From a virus (lineage: Duplodnaviria; Heunggongvirae; Uroviricota; Caudoviricetes): a stretch of DNA of 64,000 nt. The stretch lies in the IMG/VR virus record IMGVR_UViG_2609459792_000007. One strand, 5' to 3'. The position numbers were made by a program, and so were the translations under genes. Under the pieces are notes generated by a model. The model was not told where the DNA came from, searched no databases, and saw only the letters and a program-made list of their open reading frames with translations. Positions 258 through 61,171 of the stretch are shown here, piece by piece. Each line of letters starts with the position of its first letter. The stretch's first letter is position 1.

Positions 258-926
258 ATGACCAAGATCTTTGTGGTTGGCGGCACAAAGGGCGGGCCTG
301 GCAAATCCACCGTTGCCCAGCAAATTGCCGTTTGCCTGAAAGTCAAAAAGAAGAAGAAGGTTTATATCACTGATATAGATATTCAGCGCACGACAACAAG
401 CTGGTGTGAAGACCGTCGACAGAACGAAGACCTTGAGCTGATTCCTTTTGCATACGTTCAGGATGACATCATTAAGCACCTAAAATCGCTTCAGGGTAGA
501 GCTGAGTTTGTAGTGGTAGATGCTGGTGGCTTTGACTCCGAAATTCAGCGACAAGCGATGCTGATGGCCGACGTTATCATTATCCCGCTTCGTCCTAAGC
601 GTCGTGATTTGAAATCTCTGCGTGACATCGATCCTATTATCGACAATGTTCGTAATGTAAACGATAAAGTGAAGGTCCGCGCGGTCATGAACCAGTGCCC
701 GGCTTTGCCATCACAAGTGTCTCGCATTCTGGCGGCTAAAGAGATTGTCGAGACGTTTGGCATCGAGTCTGCGCCAGTCAATCTATATAACCGCAACGTC
801 TACGATGATGCGGAAGAGTCAGGTCGTTCTATCTTTGAAATGACCGGTAGCGAGCGCGACAAAAAGGCGGAAGCCGAGTTTGAAGAATTTGTAGATTATC
901 TGTTGAGTCTGGAGGAAGAAGAATAA
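258..926 (+). CDS. parA: ParA-like partition ATPase (small, type Ib-like)
   Basis: N-terminal deviant Walker A GGTKGGPGKST; 222 aa; small overlapping downstream partner gene; acidic C-terminus. Confidence 0.7.
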   Translation: MTKIFVVGGTKGGPGKSTVAQQIAVCLKVKKKKKVYITDIDIQRTTTSWCEDRRQNEDLELIPFAYVQDDIIKHLKSLQGRAEFVVVDAGGFDSEIQRQAMLMADVIIIPLRPKRRDLKSLRDIDPIIDNVRNVNDKVKVRAVMNQCPALPSQVSRILAAKEIVETFGIESAPVNLYNRNVYDDAEESGRSIFEMTGSERDKKAEAEFEEFVDYLLSLEEEE

Positions 927-1285
927 TGTCCATGAAAATGGGTGACCTAGCAAAGCGCAAAGAGCCTGATGCACCGGCTAAGAACACAACTCCTTTGCGC
1001 CAACCAGTCAGACCACAAGGACGCCCGACTCGTGGCAAAGAGAAAATTAAAAGCCGCACTATGTCACTGGAAGACGAATACTTCGAGCTTCTGGAAATGA
1101 TGAAGTTTATCCCTCGTTTCGAGAAGTTCACCCGCTCTGATGTGATTCGTGCTGCTATTTTCCATCTGGCAGAGAAGTCACCGCAGGAAATCGAGGACAT
1201 CGTGAAACTTAACGAGGCGATCACCGCTGCCGATGTCACGATGCGTACCGATGAAATCAAACGAGAGTTGATGAAGAAAGGTTAA
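926..1285 (+). CDS. Small partition partner protein (ParG/ParB-like, putative ribbon-helix-helix)
   Basis: 119 aa; start overlaps parA stop (ATAATG); basic disordered N-terminus then short helical C-terminal domain. Confidence 0.45.
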   Translation: MSMKMGDLAKRKEPDAPAKNTTPLRQPVRPQGRPTRGKEKIKSRTMSLEDEYFELLEMMKFIPRFEKFTRSDVIRAAIFHLAEKSPQEIEDIVKLNEAITAADVTMRTDEIKRELMKKG

Positions 1286-1337: not shown

Positions 1338-2105
1338 TTATGCCGCGCTAACACTATGTTCAGTCCTAACCACCCCAACCTTCACAAAAGGGCTACCGTA
1401 GCTTGGTGGCTTCTTGATTAATTTGCCTACATACAGTTTTCTAATATGCTCATCGGCTATTCTGCCAACAAATTCATATCGTTTTGTGTCGGGGCCAAGA
1501 GCTATATCCCTTGTAAAGTACTGCTGAGAACCGGCTTTGACCCAGCATTCAATCTGATAAACTTCCATTATTAGCCCACCATATGTAGCGTAGGCATATT
1601 TGAGATTCTCGTCTCTTGGAACCTTTGCCCATACGCCACGCGTAGCTTCATATAATGCCAGAGCGGACATTCCTGATTTGTAGGTGCTGTTTAGCAGGAA
1701 GGCAAGACCGGCGTGCTCAGGAGCAATTTCAGTTTCCTCTTGCAGCACTAAGTGATGGTAGGCGTCCAGTGATATTCTGCCCATCATGGAACCACTTCCT
1801 CGAACCTTATTCGTAAGCTCTCCGACCCCCATAAGGTCGATGCATGTCGCCTCAACAAGTTTGGCTGTGGTTTCATCCATACCATGACGAAGAATATCTA
1901 TGCCTAATTTTTTATTAGCCAAAAGTTCTTTGATCCGCATGGATTTGGGAGAGTCATCGGGATACTTGATGTGATCGAGACAACGAGTCGATTTGCCTTT
2001 TCCTATGTAAAACGGTCTTTTCATCTTGTCTTCTGTATCATAGAGACAGTAAACATAGTATTTAGCCTTATCCAAGGATCTCGCGTATACCGATAAATCG
2101 TCCAT
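1338..2105 (-). CDS. GIY-YIG-like nuclease domain protein
   Basis: N-terminal YYVYCLYD...KRPFYIGKGKSTR resembles GIY-YIG motif; one of few minus-strand genes. Confidence 0.4.
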   Translation of the reverse strand: MDDLSVYARSLDKAKYYVYCLYDTEDKMKRPFYIGKGKSTRCLDHIKYPDDSPKSMRIKELLANKKLGIDILRHGMDETTAKLVEATCIDLMGVGELTNKVRGSGSMMGRISLDAYHHLVLQEETEIAPEHAGLAFLLNSTYKSGMSALALYEATRGVWAKVPRDENLKYAYATYGGLIMEVYQIECWVKAGSQQYFTRDIALGPDTKRYEFVGRIADEHIRKLYVGKLIKKPPSYGSPFVKVGVVRTEHSVSAA

Positions 2106-2215
2106 TATTGCATCTCTTAGCTACTGACTAATGCGTTCTATTTTACACATAAGTTTTTAATCAATTTAACAGGCTCAAAGTGTAGAGCTTCTGGGCGTCT
2201 AAGACGACAAGTTAT

Positions 2216-2271
2216 GCCTGCTTCTGTATATATAAATAATAAGTAACTTATTAAATATATACGGAAGCAGG
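2216..2271. repeat. Palindromic ~55-bp element, copy 1 (contains TATAAATA)
   Basis: gcctgcttctgtatatataaata...atatacggaagcagg; near-identical copy at 48466-48522. Confidence 0.6.
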
Positions 2272-2387
2272 TCTTTTAAAAGACACCACCAGAACAACTC
2301 CCTTCCGTTTCCACTTCCAAAAACTGCCACCAGTCGCTATCATCCGCTCATTGTGATAAGTAAGTAACTACCTACCAGGTGAGCCAC

Positions 2388-3128: not shown

Positions 3129-3171
3129 CTAATACTAGAAAACAATTTGTTTAAAAAACAAAGGAAAGCAC

Positions 3172-5775: not shown

Positions 5776-5850
5776 CAAGTGCCGCTAAAATAAGTAGATG
5801 ATTACTTATCTTTCTGTAAGAATACTTTCATCTGTTAGCTAGGAGTTGGT

Positions 5851-9302: not shown

Positions 9303-10081
9303 AAATACAATGATAAGTATTTACTTACTTATCTTATATGTATAAGATGACTTTGTTTTCGTTGAGACGCGACTGTTTGAACTTAAATACAAGTGCAAAC
9401 GAAGAAGTCTATCTGGCAGTAGCCTAATAAGCCAAACACCAGCGAGGTCAGTTTCCAGCCTCGTTACCGAAATGGGACACACTGAGCGAGTGTGATTGCA
9501 GAACGCAGGAGGGAACATTCATGTTCCCTCCGATGAAGTAACAGAATGGGCGGTTGGTATATTTTCAACTCCATATGACTCCCGGATTCTTAGCCACTGA
9601 CCGCCCATTCTGTTACGTCATTTTGTTCAATTATGTCGTTTATACTGGGTTAAAAAGCGGCGACGTAGCCCGGCTGGTATGGTCAGCCAGCACACAACGT
9701 TGAGGCCATTACATTTTTATCAATTCTAAGGTTCTATTCACAGAGATACCGGCGAGCGTTGATATGTAACATGTTGGGCAAACATTCAATCGGAGTAGTG
9801 GCCTCAACGTTGTGAAAATAGGATAGTTGTGTAGGTTTAACCACTGTTGCCATTGGTACCTGTTTTCACAACAAATGATTCCATACATCACATTGTATAA
9901 ATTACAAAGTAGGTGCTGTCCTCAGAAACATCATCTACTTAAATAATTTGCCTTCTACTATTGAGCGAAGTCGAAAGCGTCTGGCACTAACGAAAAGTGC
10001 AAGTAGCGGTGCGTTTCCTGGCAGAAACTAACACCGCCGCGATTGGCACTGTTGAGTAATAAATACTGGCAGTGCTGAATT

Positions 10082-10156
10082 GATGGTGTAGCTCAGCGGT
10101 AGAGCAGTTGGCTGTTAACCAACTGGTCGGTGGTTCGAATCCACCCACCATCGCCA
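10082..10156 (+). tRNA. tRNA-Asn (anticodon GTT)
   Basis: Hand-folded cloverleaf: acceptor gatggtg/caccatc, D-stem gctc/gagc, anticodon stem gttgg/ccaac with loop ctGTTaa, T-arm ggtgg-ttcgaat-ccacc, CCA end. Confidence 0.85.
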
Positions 10157-10161
10157 ATTTA

Positions 10162-10248
10162 GGGGAGTTAGTCCGTAGAGGTAGCGGGGTAGACTGTAAA
10201 TCTACTGTCATGGAGACTCGGGTGGTTCGACTCCATCACTCCCCACCA
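10162..10248 (+). tRNA. tRNA-Tyr (anticodon GTA), long variable arm
   Basis: Acceptor ggggagt/actcccc, anticodon stem gtaga/tctac with loop ctGTAaa, T-arm ggtgg-ttcgact-ccatc, CCA; D-arm not cleanly canonical. Confidence 0.6.
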
Positions 10249-10252
10249 AATT

Positions 10253-26066: not shown

Positions 26067-26120
26067 ATTCTCGTTATTATCACATACAAGAAAACAATTT
26101 GTTAAAAGGTAAAGTTAATT

Positions 26121-30314: not shown

Positions 30315-30526
30315 TGGCATTAACACTGGCAGGTCTGGAAATCGAGAAAACAAGCGGCTACTGGCGTGCTAAGGGTTTCAAGCAGCCTGGCATTCTTGAG
30401 CGTCTGGAACGTGAAGATGGGTATATCGTCCACCAGCGGCGTGAATGGCGTATGTACGATCCAGAAACAGGAAAACTGACTACAAAAGCCGGAACACTTT
30501 GGGGTCTGTTGAAGAAAATACACTAA
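30314..30526 (+). CDS. Hypothetical small protein
   Basis: 70-aa ORF overlapping previous stop. Confidence 0.35.
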   Translation: MALTLAGLEIEKTSGYWRAKGFKQPGILERLEREDGYIVHQRREWRMYDPETGKLTTKAGTLWGLLKKIH

Positions 30527-30569
30527 TAGCACCAACCACTGCGGTGAGTAGTCTACTCACCGCATTCGT

Positions 30570-31012
30570 ATCCAGCTCATTATCCACTGTAGTCAGTAAC
30601 AAAACCTTCCTACATATCTGCTAACCACTGTAGCGAGTAGACAGCCTTTCATTCGCATCAAACAACCACTATGGTGAGTATTGGAGTGAGATGTCCAGCG
30701 GGTATCCACTATGGTGAGTAAGCCTTTGCTGTTTTCAGTGGATATCCACTCGCCACAGTGGATACGCTCAAAGATGAGGGCGACAACAACCACTATAGAC
30801 AGTAAATTTTCCAAGATACCCAGTGACCACTAACCTCGCAGCCCTTGTTTCATCAGTGTTAGTGATCACTAACATTTAATTCAGTATTTGCATTCTACTG
30901 CCTACAGTGGTTATCAACAGATAACGATACTCACTATAGTGGATAGCGAATTACAGATATAAGTAAGGCTCACTACAGTGGATAGTGAGTCTTACTACTA
31001 ACTACAGTGGTT
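30570..31012. repeat. Iteron array downstream of repA (incA-like), at least 10 copies
   Basis: Repeated CCACTRTRG / CYAYAGTGG cores, e.g. ccactgtagtcagtaac, ccactatggtgagta (x2), ctcactatagtggatagcg, ctcactacagtggatagtgag; orientation switches near 30900. Confidence 0.8.
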
Positions 31013-31015
31013 GGG

Positions 31016-32071
31016 CTATTTGCGAGTCTTTGCCTTGCGCAACTCTTCGAGAAGCGCCAGTTCTTCTTTACTCAACATGACCATTTTGCCTTCTTTTTCG
31101 TCAGGCACAACGTCGATAATGTCATCTTGATTCTCATCTGGGAGGCTATATTCCGTCTCATCATTATCGATTTTTGTTGATATTTGTGCCTGGCGTAACT
31201 TTGGCCGCCTATAGTGGATGACGAAGTAGACCGAGTTTCCGCGCTTAACTTCCGTGTAATCGAGATATCCTATCTCTCGCAGCTGTTCCATAGCCTTTCT
31301 TACCGTCGCATTCTGAGTAATAGTGCGACTTGTCAGATTAAGTCTGGCGCGTAAACGGGCTAGTGATATTGGTGCCGGATCAGGCGGCAAACTTTCAATA
31401 AAAGTATAAAGCGCCTGAGCGGATTCTTTTCTTGAGAGTTCGTTTATAGCCCGGAGTTGCAGAAGAACCTTTTTGTCGAACTGGTAGAGTTCGAAAATCT
31501 TGGGATCTGCTTTCAGTTCGACCGTATCGTGCTTGACACTATATTTTGCCGTTTGCACAAGATGCGTTACGTAAAACTCATCAGAGCCTTTGCTACGGAA
31601 CGAGATGGTATTTGTGGCAATACGGCTTAGCGAACTGTCCAGGCGTTTGCGTAACTTCGCTGATGACCTGGCGGTCGGAATGCCACACAGCCTTACAAAC
31701 TCAACGAACGGCAACGTGACAGTATCGCCAACGACCTTGTGTTTGGCAAACGCGTGGATTATTCCCACCCACGTTTTAAAGTCGTTATCCATATCAAGCC
31801 GAAGGCCAGAGATCCTTATGTCTTCGTACCCTTCGGCTTTTGCCAGAGACAGCTGTTTGAGTTCAGCAGAGGCATCCATAGAGACCATTTGCCCCTTTCT
31901 TCCTCTGGATGTCGATTTCAGCGTCGGAACGAAGAGGCCCAGACGCATCAAAGCAACAGGCTGAACAGTGTTATTAGTGTTAGGAACCAACGTAACAACT
32001 TCGCCTGTCTTTTTATCTGTTTCTGAAAATGCTTCAACGATCGCTATGTTTTTATTGCCGTTTTCGCTCAT
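31016..32071 (-). CDS. repA: RepA/RepE-family iteron-binding replication initiator
   Basis: 351 aa; flanked by iteron arrays on both sides; from memory resembles RepFIB/P1-type RepA (not searched). Confidence 0.75.
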
Positions 32072-32099
32072 TCCAAATGTCTCTTGTTATTCGACGGCT

Positions 32100-32240
32100 T
32101 TGGTGGCCTTTGCTGATTACAGTGGATAGTAGCACTCATCACAGCGGTTATCCTACCGTCTATAGTGGTTTTTCTCCTCTCTATAGTGGTTGCTTTGCTC
32201 CCTATAGTGGATTGTTCGCTCTCTATAGTGGATATCGATC
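32100..32240. repeat. Iteron array upstream of repA (origin/promoter-proximal), about 5 copies
   Basis: ttacagtggatag, ctatagtggtttttc, ctatagtggttgc, ctatagtggattg, ctatagtggatat at ~21-22 bp spacing. Confidence 0.8.
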
Positions 32241-32280
32241 ATGTCTGAAGGCAGATGGCACAACGGTTTGAGGTGGGCGG

Positions 32281-32500
32281 GGATCTTATTGGGTCTTTAT
32301 GGGTCTCTTTGGTTCTCTTTGTGATCTGAATTACTGGATCGGGCCTGTGGATAAAAATCAGAGAATTTCAAGAACAGGTAACTCTACTCTTCTGTGGATA
32401 TTTAAGGACATAAGAATCATGACTAAGAGTAGAGTTTAAAATATATCTATGTATATCAGTATGTTAATGAAGAATTAAGTCATTAAGTTATCCATAAAAG
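32281..32500. other. Origin-like region: GATC cluster, DnaA boxes, AT-rich unwinding stretch
   Basis: GATC sites at 32282-32340; tgtggataa (32347-32355, perfect reverse DnaA box) and tgtggatat (32393-32401); AT-rich 32437-32500; ttatccata near 32489. Confidence 0.65.
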
Positions 32501-32504
32501 ACAA

Positions 32505-32715
32505 TGTGCTCTACTCTCTACAGTGGATATATACAGCTCTCCAGAGTGGTTGTTTTACTCTTCATAGCGGTTATTCAGCTCTCTACAGAGGTTTCTTTGC
32601 TCTCCATAGTGGATGGCAACACCCTTTCAGACCAGTAACCGCAACGGCTAGAGGCGATCGGGGATCTCTTTGGATCTTCTATTTGATCTTACTTGGGATC
32701 TCTTATTTGGATCTA
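32505..32715. repeat. Second iteron set plus second GATC cluster
   Basis: ctctacagtggatat, ctccagagtggttg, ttcatagcggttat, ctctacagaggttt, ctccatagtggatgg, then six GATC within 32655-32715. Confidence 0.7.
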
Positions 32716-33459: not shown

Positions 33460-33713
33460 CCCTCCAGATCGTATATTGGCGTAGATAGAATCTACGCCCC
33501 CTCAAAATAGCTCTCATAGCGTTCTACAGTGATCCTGTCTTATTTTTAGTCATACAGACAAGCAAAGTTGCGCCACGATAAATAGGTATATACTTACTTA
33601 TAAATTTTGTATATTAAGGCGCTCGTTTCATTCCTAACATACCGTTATGCATAGTTGTTTACCTCCTCATTGCTCTTAGAATTTGTATCAAAATAACCAC
33701 AAAGGAAAAACAC

Positions 33714-40646: not shown

Positions 40647-40752
40647 CATATGGTGGGGGATATCCCCACCTTCTCTTTGATTTGTAAGCCTTGTTTAAAC
40701 ATATAAGATAACAACTTGTTTAAACGCACCAAAAAAGAAAAAGGAAAAACAC

Positions 40753-47667: not shown

Positions 47668-47849
47668 CGTTCCCCTACTGAAAATAAAGCCCATAGAGAG
47701 CTTTATAGTGCTGGGTAAGCTAACCCATACCCAGCACCACAAAAACGCGTCAGAGAGCTTCTCGTTTGCATTTCTGGCGCGTTTTATTTGATTGCCAGAC
47801 ATAAAATCAAATGCAAAAATAGGTATTTACTTACCTATCGAGAAAGAAG

Positions 47850-48443
47850 ATGATTGCAGCCGAAAAAATCAAACAGCGAAAGCGCGACAACTCTCTTCGT
47901 GACCTCTGGAGAACACCTGATTGGCTGTTTTCTGCCATTCAACGTTATCTTGGAGTGACATTTGATGTTGACGTTGCCTGCAACAAGGACAATGCAAAGC
48001 TGCCTAATTTCATAGGCGTTGAGCGTGATGCTTTGAAATCTGAATGGGGACAGCCAGGTACAATTGCCTTCCTCAATCCACCCTACTCCAAAATCTCCCC
48101 CTGGATTGATGCGGCTATACGTGAGCAGGCTCGCGGAGTTACAACAGTGATGCTAATTCCTCAATCCCTAGATACAAAGTGGTATGAGCGTGCAACAGAG
48201 TGTGCGAATGAGACGATTATTCTGTCTGGTGGCCGCGTAGCGTTTGTCGAGCCTGACGTCAATCTGGGTCAGGTAGAAGTAAACATCAACCCAGGTGGCA
48301 GTATGCTCGTTGTTTTTCGAGGATTCTGTCAGGACGCTGGGCACTCTATAAGCAAGATCCCTTTGGACGTCATGAAAAGTCTGGGAGGGTATGATCCTGC
48401 GAATGTGATCAGGAAAAAAAGACCATCAAAGAAGGCTGCTTAG
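47850..48443 (+). CDS. DNA N6-adenine methyltransferase (phage Dam-like)
   Basis: Catalytic motif NPPYS; 197 aa. Confidence 0.7.
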   Translation: MIAAEKIKQRKRDNSLRDLWRTPDWLFSAIQRYLGVTFDVDVACNKDNAKLPNFIGVERDALKSEWGQPGTIAFLNPPYSKISPWIDAAIREQARGVTTVMLIPQSLDTKWYERATECANETIILSGGRVAFVEPDVNLGQVEVNINPGGSMLVVFRGFCQDAGHSISKIPLDVMKSLGGYDPANVIRKKRPSKKAA

Positions 48444-48465
48444 TTTGTTCTGGCGTCTGTAATTA

Positions 48466-48522
48466 GCCTGCTTCTGTATATATAAATAACTACATATTAA
48501 TTATTAATATACGGAAGCAGGC
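48466..48522. repeat. Palindromic ~55-bp element, copy 2 (contains TATAAATA)
   Basis: gcctgcttctgtatatataaata...atatacggaagcagg; matches copy at 2216-2271 including flanking tctggcgtct. Confidence 0.6.
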
Positions 48523-48604
48523 TGTTTTGTATCAGAGACTCCAGACCTGAACATCACTACAGAATCCACTAGAACCCCTTCCCAGACGCTTTAAAATCGA
48601 TTTT

Positions 48605-48859: not shown

Positions 48860-49443
48860 TAGATAAGTACAAACTATTCATAAAGTGAATTGTAAGTGCT
48901 AAGATCTGATAGTTTCCAGTCGTAGACTGGAGACTCGACCTGATGGGTGGGGGTAAGCGTCACTGGCGTCAGGTTTAAAAAAGCTCACTACCAGCGTAGA
49001 ACCGGTGCCGTTTAGGTGTCGGGGAAGGGGGAACCAAAGTGAGCGGAGACAAGGGTCACTTTATGATTGTCGAGTCTGGGGTGTTTCGAGAGGTTGAATC
49101 CAGTACTCCCCTTCATAAAGTGTGGGAAGATCTCGGTTCTGGGGTGCTGTCATCCATAACTTCCCAAGTCTAAGCTGGCAGTAGACTTAGGCCATAACTT
49201 TTCAGGTTATGAAACGACCAGGTTGGTGAGGGATTTTTATACTCACCTCCCTGGGAGAGTATTACCTGAAAAGACAACCTCTCACTTCGTTCGAGGTGAA
49301 CTTCACTCACTTCGTTCGTTCAGTTCAGGTTTATAAAAACCTGTTCTGGGAAGTAATTTGTTTATTTTAATAATTATTAACACGCACGCGTGTGCGCACG
49401 CGCGAGGAAAAAAATCGGCGCGGCGCTTGATTCAGGAGTTTAT

Positions 49444-50034: not shown

Positions 50035-50182
50035 TAAGTAAGTCTTTACCTATCATTTTAAATCATGTATCTTATCGGCGTCAGGATGACAATGTGTCGG
50101 TAAGACACAGTTCCAGGATGGAACGAGAAAGGCGGCTGGCAATCGCCAGCCGCAACTCTTTCTGACACTGGATGGAGTCCAC

Positions 50183-50884: not shown

Positions 50885-50977
50885 CGGTTGTTAGTGCATA
50901 TGCATTGACCGTCTTTTCGTAAGCAATTCATGTAACTAGAAAACAGCTTGTTTTAACAAATAACAAAAGGAAAGCAC

Positions 50978-51561: not shown

Positions 51562-51700
51562 TGACAAGGGCCAAATGGCCCTTGTGTTTCGTTGACCGAA
51601 ATAGAGAGTTTGCACCTTTACGTTTAGCTTGCTCCCCTTTTATGCCACATCACAATAAAGCCAATAAGAAAACAACTTGTTTAAGCATTAGGAAAAACAC

Positions 51701-55013: not shown

Positions 55014-55074
55014 TAGGTAAATACTTACTTAATTTGTGTAAGAATGTAATAACTAAACGATAAGAGAAAAACAC

Positions 55075-56159: not shown

Positions 56160-56278
56160 ACGCTACAAATCCTTCGGCATGAATAAATAAAGGCCATAAG
56201 TTGTGGCCTTAAATAAATTGTTTTCTACCTTTTCTTATTTGTGAAAATAACCACAACTAGAAAACAACGGAGTTAAGA

Positions 56279-61035: not shown

Positions 61036-61171
61036 GCATCCCTTCTCCATTAAGGCCACTAGTTGTGGCCTTAAACAATTTGTTTTCTACCTTTTCTTGT
61101 TCGAGAAAATAACGTTCCTTTGTCTGGTGCTATGTACCGAACAGTTGCACTGAGTGAGCTTCTTTCATGTA

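Follow-up and report, generated by a model that had tools for sequence, protein, structure and literature searches.

A conserved, paralogous family of palindromes, probably terminator hairpins, at gene-module borders of SSU5-type phage-plasmids

In phage lambda, the tI/sib region places a terminator hairpin inside a larger dyad whose distal arm lies beyond the U-run, and the full duplex forms only on read-through. Other large palindromes act on DNA, such as the AT-centred herpesvirus oriS/oriL and the phage N15 telRL (56 bp). Phages also use dispersed DNA sites, among them the centromeres of N15 and the C1 operators of P1. In T4-like phages, the PeSL cassettes are conserved promoter-terminator stem-loops that mediate modular shuffling (PMC2839356, PMC4122927) and bound hyperplastic regions (PMC4122927).

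The element analysed here occurs twice in a 64,000-nucleotide stretch of viral DNA (the window; copies c1 and c2) and a third time in complete relatives (c3). Like intrinsic terminators, it combines a stable hairpin with an immediate U-run on one strand, follows a stop codon in relatives and, at c1 of one relative, coincides with a drop in expression. It departs from them in the length of its hairpin (about 27 bp including the AU-rich top), in its three paralogous copies conserved across genera, in being nested in a second inverted repeat and in the lack of a U-run at c3. Like PeSL, it is a conserved, repeated intergenic stem-loop, and c1 borders a hyperplastic region at gene-swap break-points; unlike PeSL, its three copies are fixed in position, no promoter is evident, only c1 borders variable DNA, and the element is carried by a temperate phage-plasmid instead of a T4-like phage. 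The likeness to lambda tI/sib, predicted from sequence and folds, lies in outer arms that are clear at c2 and c3 and co-vary in distant relatives. However, the element has three copies where lambda has one, its outer stem at c1 is weak, and RNase III cleavage and antitermination are hypothetical in this system. With oriS/oriL and telRL the element shares a length of about 55 bp, an AT-rich centre, conserved inverted arms and several copies per genome, but its replicons are circular plasmids, it has no known link to a protelomerase or an origin-binding protein, and its one-sided T-run and one-strand wobble bias point to a role in RNA.

Three palindromic copies and their distribution

The window shares 98-99% identity with the Escherichia phages CMS-2020a, PhiR41_1 and Cyrano, and about 80% with Salmonella phage SSU5; on this basis we assign it to an SSU5/pHCM2-type phage-plasmid. 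It carries two 56-bp near-perfect palindromes, both on the plus strand (Table 1), whose arms read CCTGCTTC(T/C)GTATAT and whose AT-rich centre is itself near-palindromic. The first-pass annotation had described a duplicated palindrome at these positions, and our analysis agrees: the 24-mer GCCTGCTTCTGTATATATAAATAA has two exact matches in the window (2216 and 48466, both plus strand) and none in 100 dinucleotide shuffles, and both copies are inverted repeats with 17-nt arms that are 94% complementary. Over 56 nt, c1 and c2 are 82% identical, with all differences confined to the AT-rich centre. The common left-flank motif pointed out in the same annotation was also recovered (TTCTGGGCGTC at 2189-2199 for c1; the corresponding c2 motif is listed in Table 1), as was TATAAATA in both copies (at 2231 and 48481).

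Table 1. Positions of the palindromes and of their flanking features in the 64,000-nt window
Feature	Position	Strand	Remark
c1 inner palindrome	2216..2271	+	arms 2217-2233 / 2255-2271
c2 inner palindrome	48466..48521	+	17-bp arms 48465-48481 / 48507-48523
c1 T-run TCTTTT	2272..2277	+	directly 3' of c1 right arm
c2 T-rich tail CTGTTTTG	48522..48529	+	directly 3' of c2 right arm
c1 outer left arm TTCTGG	2189..2194	+	weak pairing with 2289-2294 (extended fold)
c1 outer right arm CCAGAA	2289..2294	+	family flanks and extended fold
c2 outer left arm TTCTGGCGTCTG	48448..48459	+	pairs with 48533-48545 in extended fold
c2 outer right arm CAGAGACTCCAGA	48533..48545	+	beyond T-run
C-rich, G-poor untranslated tract after c1	2272..2351	+	C 30, G 7 in 80 nt
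C-rich, G-poor tract after c2	48523..48602	+	C 23, G 11 in 80 nt

The two copies had been placed just downstream of genes, which is correct for c2 and incorrect for c1. Copy c2 begins 22 nt past the stop codon of a Dam-family methylase gene (47850-48443), whereas c1 is situated between two divergently oriented genes, a minus-strand one (1338-2105) that encodes a GIY-YIG nuclease domain and a plus-strand one that starts at 2388. Unlike c1 of the window, c1 of SSU5 and Cyrano is located directly 3' of a plus-strand gene, and in relatives every copy starts 15-25 nt past the stop codon of a plus-strand gene.

A search for further copies in related elements, as suggested earlier, revealed the third copy, c3. 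The complete PhiR41_1 and SSU5 genomes each contain three full copies in the same three places, dispersed over about 105 kb, and these positions recur in all relatives examined. The c1 site is 5' of a conserved gene of 246 aa followed by DnaB-like helicase and primase genes, the c2 site is 3' of the Dam methylase gene, and the c3 site, outside the window, is about 115 nt upstream of the small-terminase gene.

Family contexts of c1, c2 and c3 were gathered from IMG/VR via the neighbouring proteins (80, 80 and 76 loci, respectively), and the c1 and c3 contexts of the most distant relatives were obtained through protein homologues. In 78 of the 80 loci, copy c1 precedes the orthologous gene at an unchanged distance of about 117 nt, the other two being contigs that start at or inside the element. 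Copy c2 follows the orthologous methylase gene in 68 of 80 loci; the 12 others comprise 2 truncated contigs and 10 distant relatives with diverged or partly lost arms. Over the three contexts, almost all loci that cover the region have the element, and its distance to the next start codon is constant, at 107-117 nt.

BLAST analysis returned 12 phage records, all SSU5-like, among 50,697, and 801 PLSDB plasmids from Klebsiella, Escherichia, Enterobacter, Yersinia, Salmonella, Citrobacter and Cronobacter. Among 5,426 complete E. coli genomes, 255 carry the element, with 394 matches and none on a chromosome; the E. coli plasmids that carry it measure about 70-140 kb, most of them about 105-115 kb among the matches listed. 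For the distant relatives, a 14-nt arm gave chance matches only among the IMG/VR matches listed, two-arm gapped patterns retrieved just the already known copy in each distant genome, and the two most distant c2 contexts had no megablast match in PLSDB. No Rfam family was matched, the only hits being generic long-hairpin (microRNA precursor) models far below threshold. The literature search returned no description of the element or of the SSU5 virion ends, and the sequence records searched contain no annotation of it.

Comparison of the c1 flanks revealed an asymmetry. Homology between the window and Cyrano, SSU5 and a second CMS-2020a record starts at window positions 2207-2217, that is, at the left edge of c1. 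In the c1 family, 33 distinct upstream sequences, at least 15 of them unrelated, face one conserved downstream sequence, and homology usually resumes at the outer arm. As judged from these comparisons, c1 is a recombination boundary at a hypervariable cargo slot. A conserved stem-loop cassette at gene-replacement break-points, as in PeSL, is found at c1 only, and a sigma-70 scan called no PeSL-like early promoter beside the c1 stem-loop.

A break of homology exactly at the edge of a palindromic repeat of about 100 bp, present in several copies with terminal inverted motifs, is also what a miniature mobile element (MITE-, REP- or ERIC-like) would produce if it transposed or were spread by a dedicated enzyme, and a small mobile or repeat element had been among the functions first suggested. 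The distribution described above speaks strongly against it: the same three positions are filled in every relative examined, no match is chromosomal, phage records with the element are all SSU5-like, and inspection of the listed flanks by eye showed no flanking duplications. We regard this explanation as highly improbable.

Signals of rightward termination

In the rightward transcript, the inner hairpins have predicted folding energies of -26 to -30 kcal/mol and z-scores of -6 to -9 relative to shuffled sequences (-29.8 kcal/mol and z = -9.0 for c1, positions 2216-2282; -26.9 kcal/mol and z = -6.2 for c2). Their stems of 15-17 bp, with CCUGC/GCAGG at the base, correspond to the G+C-rich stem-loop of an intrinsic terminator. 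The U-rich tract is likewise present at c1 and c2, but not at c3. In the window, the c1 right arm (...GAAGCAGG) is followed at once by its T-run. A run of at least four T occurs within 10 nt 3' of the arm in 33 of 38 distinct c1 downstream flanks and directly after the right arm in 23 of 28 distinct c2 flanks, against none of 31 distinct c3 flanks. No matching A-run was found upstream of the left arm in the family flanks, and the signal is therefore one-directional.

The tracts that follow the hairpins have the composition of a rut site, being C-rich, G-poor and untranslated over about 80 nt. After c1, the C-minus-G skew of these 80 nt is the highest of any 80-nt stretch in the 64-kb window; the family mean over 60 nt is 36% C and 8% G, and the tract includes a strongly conserved block, CCCTTCCGTTTCCACTTCC. 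The tract after c2 reaches the 98.4th percentile of C-minus-G skew in the window. On base composition, Rho loading at these tracts is a possible backup to the hairpins.

Expression data are available for a close relative. RNA-seq of an E. coli LF82 lysogen carrying Cyrano, reported as per-gene normalised counts (PMC9928086, Table S1), gives 49.8 for ParA, 89.1 for CYRAN_29 and 54.6 for CYRAN_30, all before c1, and 6.2, with a floor of about 5, for CYRAN_31 after it (PMC9928086). The CYRAN_30 stop codon lies about 23 nt before the inner arm. In macrophage samples, log2 values drop from about 10 to about 3 across c1, and the flanks of c2 and c3 are silent on both sides in the Cyrano lysogen (PMC9928086). 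At the per-gene resolution of these data from a relative, expression of the parA operon falls to background across c1. A simple promoter/terminator scan called neither c1 nor c2, because it limits the loop to 8 nt and requires at least five T in 8.

Of the functions proposed in the first-pass annotation, that of a terminator is thus favoured for both window copies by the stable hairpin and the plus-strand T-run and, for c1, by the drop in expression in Cyrano. We consider it probable, with some reservation, that c1 and c2 are rightward intrinsic terminators that insulate gene modules; the function of c2, and termination at base resolution, we infer.

Some features of the family fit this reading poorly. 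The best-conserved and most perfect copy, c3, has no T-run, and therefore termination alone cannot explain the whole family. Ordinary terminators are shorter and less conserved in sequence. Finally, no plus-strand gene ends just upstream of c1 in the window.

In the mechanism that we propose, each window copy would be the core of a nested palindrome of about 100 bp acting in RNA as a rightward, factor-independent terminator. First, in the plus-strand transcript, the arms CCUGCUUCUGUAUAU and AUAUACGGAAGCAGG and the AU-rich centre would form a long hairpin, and the U-run right after it would cause transcript release. Secondly, a polymerase that escapes would go on to transcribe the untranslated tract, rich in C and poor in G, and Rho could load on this RNA as a second barrier. 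Thirdly, c1 would end the parA or partition-plus-cargo unit, expressed in the plasmid state, and keep its transcription from running into the helicase-primase operon, while c2 would end the unit whose last gene encodes the Dam methylase. The three copies would be kept alike by gene conversion, sometimes in inverted orientation, together with selection on the hairpin. As a conserved block beside variable DNA, c1 would also act as the right-hand anchor of a cargo-swapping hotspot.

Evolution of the arms and the outer repeat

The half-site derived from 69 distinct elements is CCTG[C/T][T/G/A]T[C/T][T/C]GTATA. Nine of its 14 positions (1-3, 7 and 10-14) are invariant in 138 arms, a set selected by arm similarity, and this invariance spans genera whose flanking proteins are just 73-88% identical. 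Position 9 is C or T, independently in each arm. Such strong arm conservation suggests either a sequence-specific partner or strong homogenisation.

Pairing within the arms was then considered at the RNA level. In the 69 distinct elements, 97% of arm positions form Watson-Crick or G.U pairs on the plus strand. Wobbles tolerable on plus-strand RNA number 47, against 14 on minus-strand RNA, as counted without correction for shared ancestry. Among 28 distinct arm pairs, 94.9% of cells are paired compared with 92.9% in shuffles (none of 500 reached the observed value), and six pairs changed on both sides where 1.2 were expected. Several variants also contain two or three uncompensated mid-stem mismatches, for example CCTGCGTCTG with CGAAAGCAGG, an observation that counts against the terminator reading.

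Variation among the copies takes several forms. Rare arm variants (CGTCTG, CTTTCG and TTTCTG) recur in different copies and in opposite arms within a clade, which points to an exchange of sequence between copies by gene conversion. Gene conversion, with frequent recombination among these plasmids, may be the cause of the arm conservation. Three of the 46 distinct c1 variants have the whole core in reverse complement between unmoved flanks, and the T-run does not move with a flipped core. The (TA)n runs next to the centre differ in length among variants.

These variants bear on TATAAATA, in which the first-pass annotation had seen the core of a T4-type late promoter. As a promoter of this or another type for the downstream gene, TATAAATA would benefit from its presence on the plus strand in both window copies and in all c3 copies, and from the constant spacing to the next start codon. 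However, it is not enriched in the 64 kb (3 found, 1.9 expected), the flipped cores put it on the other strand, and some variants lack it, in addition to the length variation of the adjoining (TA)n tracts. No sigma-70-like promoter was called at c1, the sole promoter call overlapping c2 is a weak minus-strand one (9 of 12), and CYRAN_31, just after c1, is at background in the lysogen. Moreover, the genes that follow c1 and c2 are replication and accessory genes rather than late ones, and the annotations of the SSU5, Cyrano and PhiR41_1 records include no gp55-type sigma factor. The late-promoter proposal is hence abandoned, and we give a promoter in the centre next to no credence.

In more distant lineages, the arms differ from the consensus. 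The c1 arms of a Raoultella plasmid are CCTGCTCCCCAT and ATGGGAAGCAGG; the Xenorhabdus type has c2 arms GCCTTGCTCCCATA and TATGGGAGCAAGGC, with an identical right arm at c3; and in a Morganella plasmid the right arm TAT(G/C)GGAGCACGGC is common to c1 and c2. It follows that the arms change over time, and that within a lineage they change in concert. In distant relatives, something terminator-like takes the place of a lost arm. At c1 of Morganella, a TGCTCCC close by is the pairing partner of the right arm, and ATTTCTTTC follows this arm, giving a smaller hairpin and a T-run; in the clade of loci L078-L084/L087, a c2 remnant precedes a textbook hairpin and TTTTT.

The inner palindrome is nested in an outer inverted repeat. 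In most flanks, the left arm is preceded by TCTGG(GAG) at a distance of 18-27 nt, and the right arm is followed by (CTC)CCAGA at 18-25 nt. Of the distinct c1 flanks, 20 of 33 upstream ones have TCTGG at 20-34 nt from the inner arm, even next to unrelated cargo, and 32 of 38 downstream ones have a CCAGA whose end lies 22-25 nt past the inner arm. At c2, Klebsiella-type relatives show a clean outer pair of 9-11 bp, GTCTGGGAGTG / CACTCCCAGAC, and in the Xenorhabdus and Morganella types both outer arms differ, reading CCGCAGTG / CACTGCGG. In predicted folds, the extended RNAs form nearly continuous duplexes with the outer arms paired, notably at c3, and the energies are -40 to -47 kcal/mol; the values for the window are -41.5 kcal/mol for c1 (2185-2300) and -39.5 kcal/mol for c2. 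A longest-stem test against shuffles placed the outer stem above chance for c2 and c3 but not for c1, although this test is crude and too permissive, because G.U pairs were allowed.

Since the outer right arm lies beyond the T-run, it can pair in RNA only on read-through transcripts. This arrangement would suit an element that is mainly an RNA-processing or stability signal, perhaps a two-state switch like lambda sib/tI: the inner hairpin and U-run would end ordinary transcription, and read-through, for instance in lytic growth, would add the outer right arm to give a duplex of about 40 bp, whose cleavage by RNase III would separate or destabilise the flanking messages. The outer repeat completed only by read-through (TCTGGGAG / CTCCCAGA, or the Xenorhabdus and Morganella pair), the stability of the extended folds and the c3 hairpin, whose lack of a T-run fits a processing site, all agree with it. 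However, the c1 outer stem measures only 5-6 bp, a length expected by chance, and the SSU5 and Cyrano records have no annotated antiterminator gene. Such a switch overlaps with the terminator explanation without excluding it, and we hold it to be a minor possibility as the main function.

Copy c3, DNA-level function and biological meaning

Copy c3 is the most perfect of the three; it never flips, and a small canonical terminator lies about 70 nt downstream of it. The SSU5 RefSeq record is cut exactly in the c3 centre. The terS coordinate is 135 in the Cyrano record and 134 in that of SSU5, so the start of the Cyrano record was probably copied from SSU5 and is not independent evidence. We treat the cut as a probable artefact of assembly or layout.

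A cos site at c3 was considered as a candidate and rejected: many contigs break at or near these palindromes, full-length contigs start anywhere, and the large terminase is of the Terminase_6N/Terminase_3 type, which tells against cos. Large terminases of this type are associated with headful rather than cos packaging.

The palindrome could alternatively be a DNA-level site, in which two CCTGC...GTATA half-sites around an easily melted AT-rich centre would be recognised by a phage-plasmid protein or a cruciform-specific factor. It could then act as a lytic replication origin, a packaging-initiation site, a dispersed partition or condensation site, or an operator, with herpesvirus oriS/oriL, the dispersed N15 centromeres and the dispersed P1 C1 operators as analogies. 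In this case, the constancy of CCT(G) and GTATA in the 138 arms, with independent variation at positions 5, 6, 8 and 9, would reflect recognition of the half-sites, and the core flips give the function the appearance of being insensitive to orientation. The dispersal of three copies over a genome of about 105 kb, the lineage-specific arms common to c1 and c2 in Morganella and to c2 and c3 in Xenorhabdus, the position of c1 just before the helicase-primase genes, and the proximity of the perfect, T-run-less c3 to the small-terminase gene are also in its favour. Gene conversion alone can nevertheless explain the common arm variants, and a symmetric site does not account for the one-sided T-run and the C-rich tail. 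Mismatches biased to G.U on plus-strand RNA are not expected of a duplex-DNA site, and degenerate copies keep one arm, a hairpin and a T-run rather than two half-sites. In addition, no binding protein was identified, the plasmid origin with iterons lies elsewhere (about 30.5-32.6 kb), and the type of the large terminase points to headful rather than cos packaging. A DNA site is, in our estimation, unlikely.

A broader reading, which we put forward only tentatively and judge rather improbable, is that the palindromes are sequence-specific cis-acting control points across the SSU5 supergroup. In a sib-like version, by analogy with lambda, they would terminate transcription in the plasmid state, and a phage-plasmid antitermination factor would allow lytic read-through followed by RNase III cleavage. 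In a cruciform version, they would be AT-centred DNA sites for the initiation of lytic replication or packaging. If true, this reading would explain both the arm sequence frozen across genera and the perfect c3 devoid of a T-run.

Returning to the favoured reading, the element is previously undescribed but probably a conventional regulatory one, namely a conserved, paralogous family of terminator hairpins, whose evolution is unusual in some respects and which could have a second role as well. If it is only a terminator, the result is an ordinary one and still useful. Phage-plasmids of the SSU5/pHCM2/pMT1 type are common in Escherichia, Klebsiella, Salmonella, Enterobacter and Yersinia, some of them with resistance genes. 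Located at the borders of the partition-plus-cargo, replication and morphogenesis modules, the element offers concrete sites at which plasmid-state and lytic genes may be kept separate. Copy c1 also marks the right-hand edge of a slot that swaps toxin-antitoxin, nuclease and other cargo, which helps the annotation and engineering of these phage-plasmids.

Sequence around the palindrome copies

The tract that follows c1, the 56-bp palindrome copy lying before the helicase-primase operon, shows the strongest C-over-G skew of the whole window, with 30 C and 7 G in 80 nt. Within it, the block CCCTTCCGTTTCCACTTCC is near-invariant across genera, and a similar CCCTTCC block is also found downstream of c2, the copy after the Dam methylase gene. 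From its base composition, the c1 tract would qualify as rut-like, resembling a Rho-loading site.

Complete relatives carry a third copy (c3) upstream of the small-terminase gene. The linear SSU5 record (NC_018843.1; loci L008/L006) both starts and ends at the exact centre of the c3 palindrome, a break that less probably reflects a real DNA end at this site. Several assembled IMG/VR contigs likewise end at or beside palindromes of the c1/c2/c3 type, and the record ends and contig breaks are probably an artefact of assembly or record layout.

Dispersed motifs and other repeats

Coordinates of the features described here and below are collected in the following table.

Repeats, genes and transcribed region located in the window
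Feature	Position	Strand	Remark
Gene after parA	926-1285		119 aa
Cargo gene adjoining c1	1338-2105	-	255-aa protein
C-rich tract after c1	2272-2351		
(T/A)AGAAAACAANTTGTTT(A/T)A copies	206-222, 3136-3152, 13675-13691, 26088-26104, 40705-40721, 50937-50953, 51666-51682, 56211-56223, 61073-61085		
TA(A/G)GTA-N6-TAC(C/T)TA copies	2357-2374, 5791-5808, 9314-9331, 33583-33600, 47820-47837, 50035-50052, 55014-55031		
Repeat-rich stretch	9533-10719		
Inverted-repeat pairs near tRNA genes	9533/9600, 9693/9795, 10326/10389, 10642/10700		
Three tRNA genes	10082-10325		within the repeat-rich stretch
Iteron arrays	30500-32620		
Small ORF or region	49039-49173		equivalent of Cyrano CYRAN_81
65-nt direct repeat	56187-56251 and 61049-61113		88% identical

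The palindromic motif (T/A)AGAAAACAANTTGTTT(A/T)A occurs in at least nine copies in the window, seven of which lie 20-45 nt upstream of start codons on the + strand, those of parA and the helicase gene among them. The core, being palindromic, matches both strands; these seven gene-upstream copies are all oriented with their AGAAAAC side on the + strand. Two more copies are present in relatives between c3 and the terminase gene. The motif may act in transcription, as an operator or an unusual kind of promoter element, or else in translation, as a signal.

A second dispersed inverted repeat, TA(A/G)GTA-N6-TAC(C/T)TA, is present in seven copies, at least two of them about 15 nt or less from a start codon; one such copy precedes the gene that follows c1, another the Dam methylase gene. 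The motif resembles a binding site for a dimeric regulator.

In the 65-nt direct repeat, a compact hairpin, GGCCACAACTTATGGCC, occurs together with a copy of the AAACAANTTGTTT motif, which is on the opposite strand. The repeat resembles a second, unrelated cassette made up of a terminator and a motif. Around the tRNA genes, four long inverted-repeat pairs were found, with arms of 20-24 nt that are 83-95% complementary and spaced by 38-82 nt. The iterons, with a unit of about 21 nt and the core CTATAGTGGAT, form two blocks, one on each side of the replication-protein gene; this region, presumably the plasmid origin, is distinct from the c1 and c2 palindromes.

Genes left of c1 and a transcribed small region

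The product of the gene adjoining c1 has a GIY-YIG nuclease domain of the LEM-3-like type (E = 5.5e-7). The gene lies in a variable cargo slot that in relatives harbors unrelated genes; in SSU5, for instance, the slot encodes a DUF2971 protein, and in Cyrano it holds the hypothetical CYRAN_30. For the gene after parA, the Cyrano record gives a RelE/ParE toxin, a label that is doubtful because no Pfam match was found for the gene's product and because the gene occupies the place where a small ParA would be expected to have its centromere-binding partner.

Per-gene RNA-seq of the Cyrano lysogen (PMC9928086) revealed expression of CYRAN_81 at about 12-fold over background, flanked by silent neighbours. 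The equivalent region of the window may give rise to a small RNA, or to a small protein, in the plasmid state.
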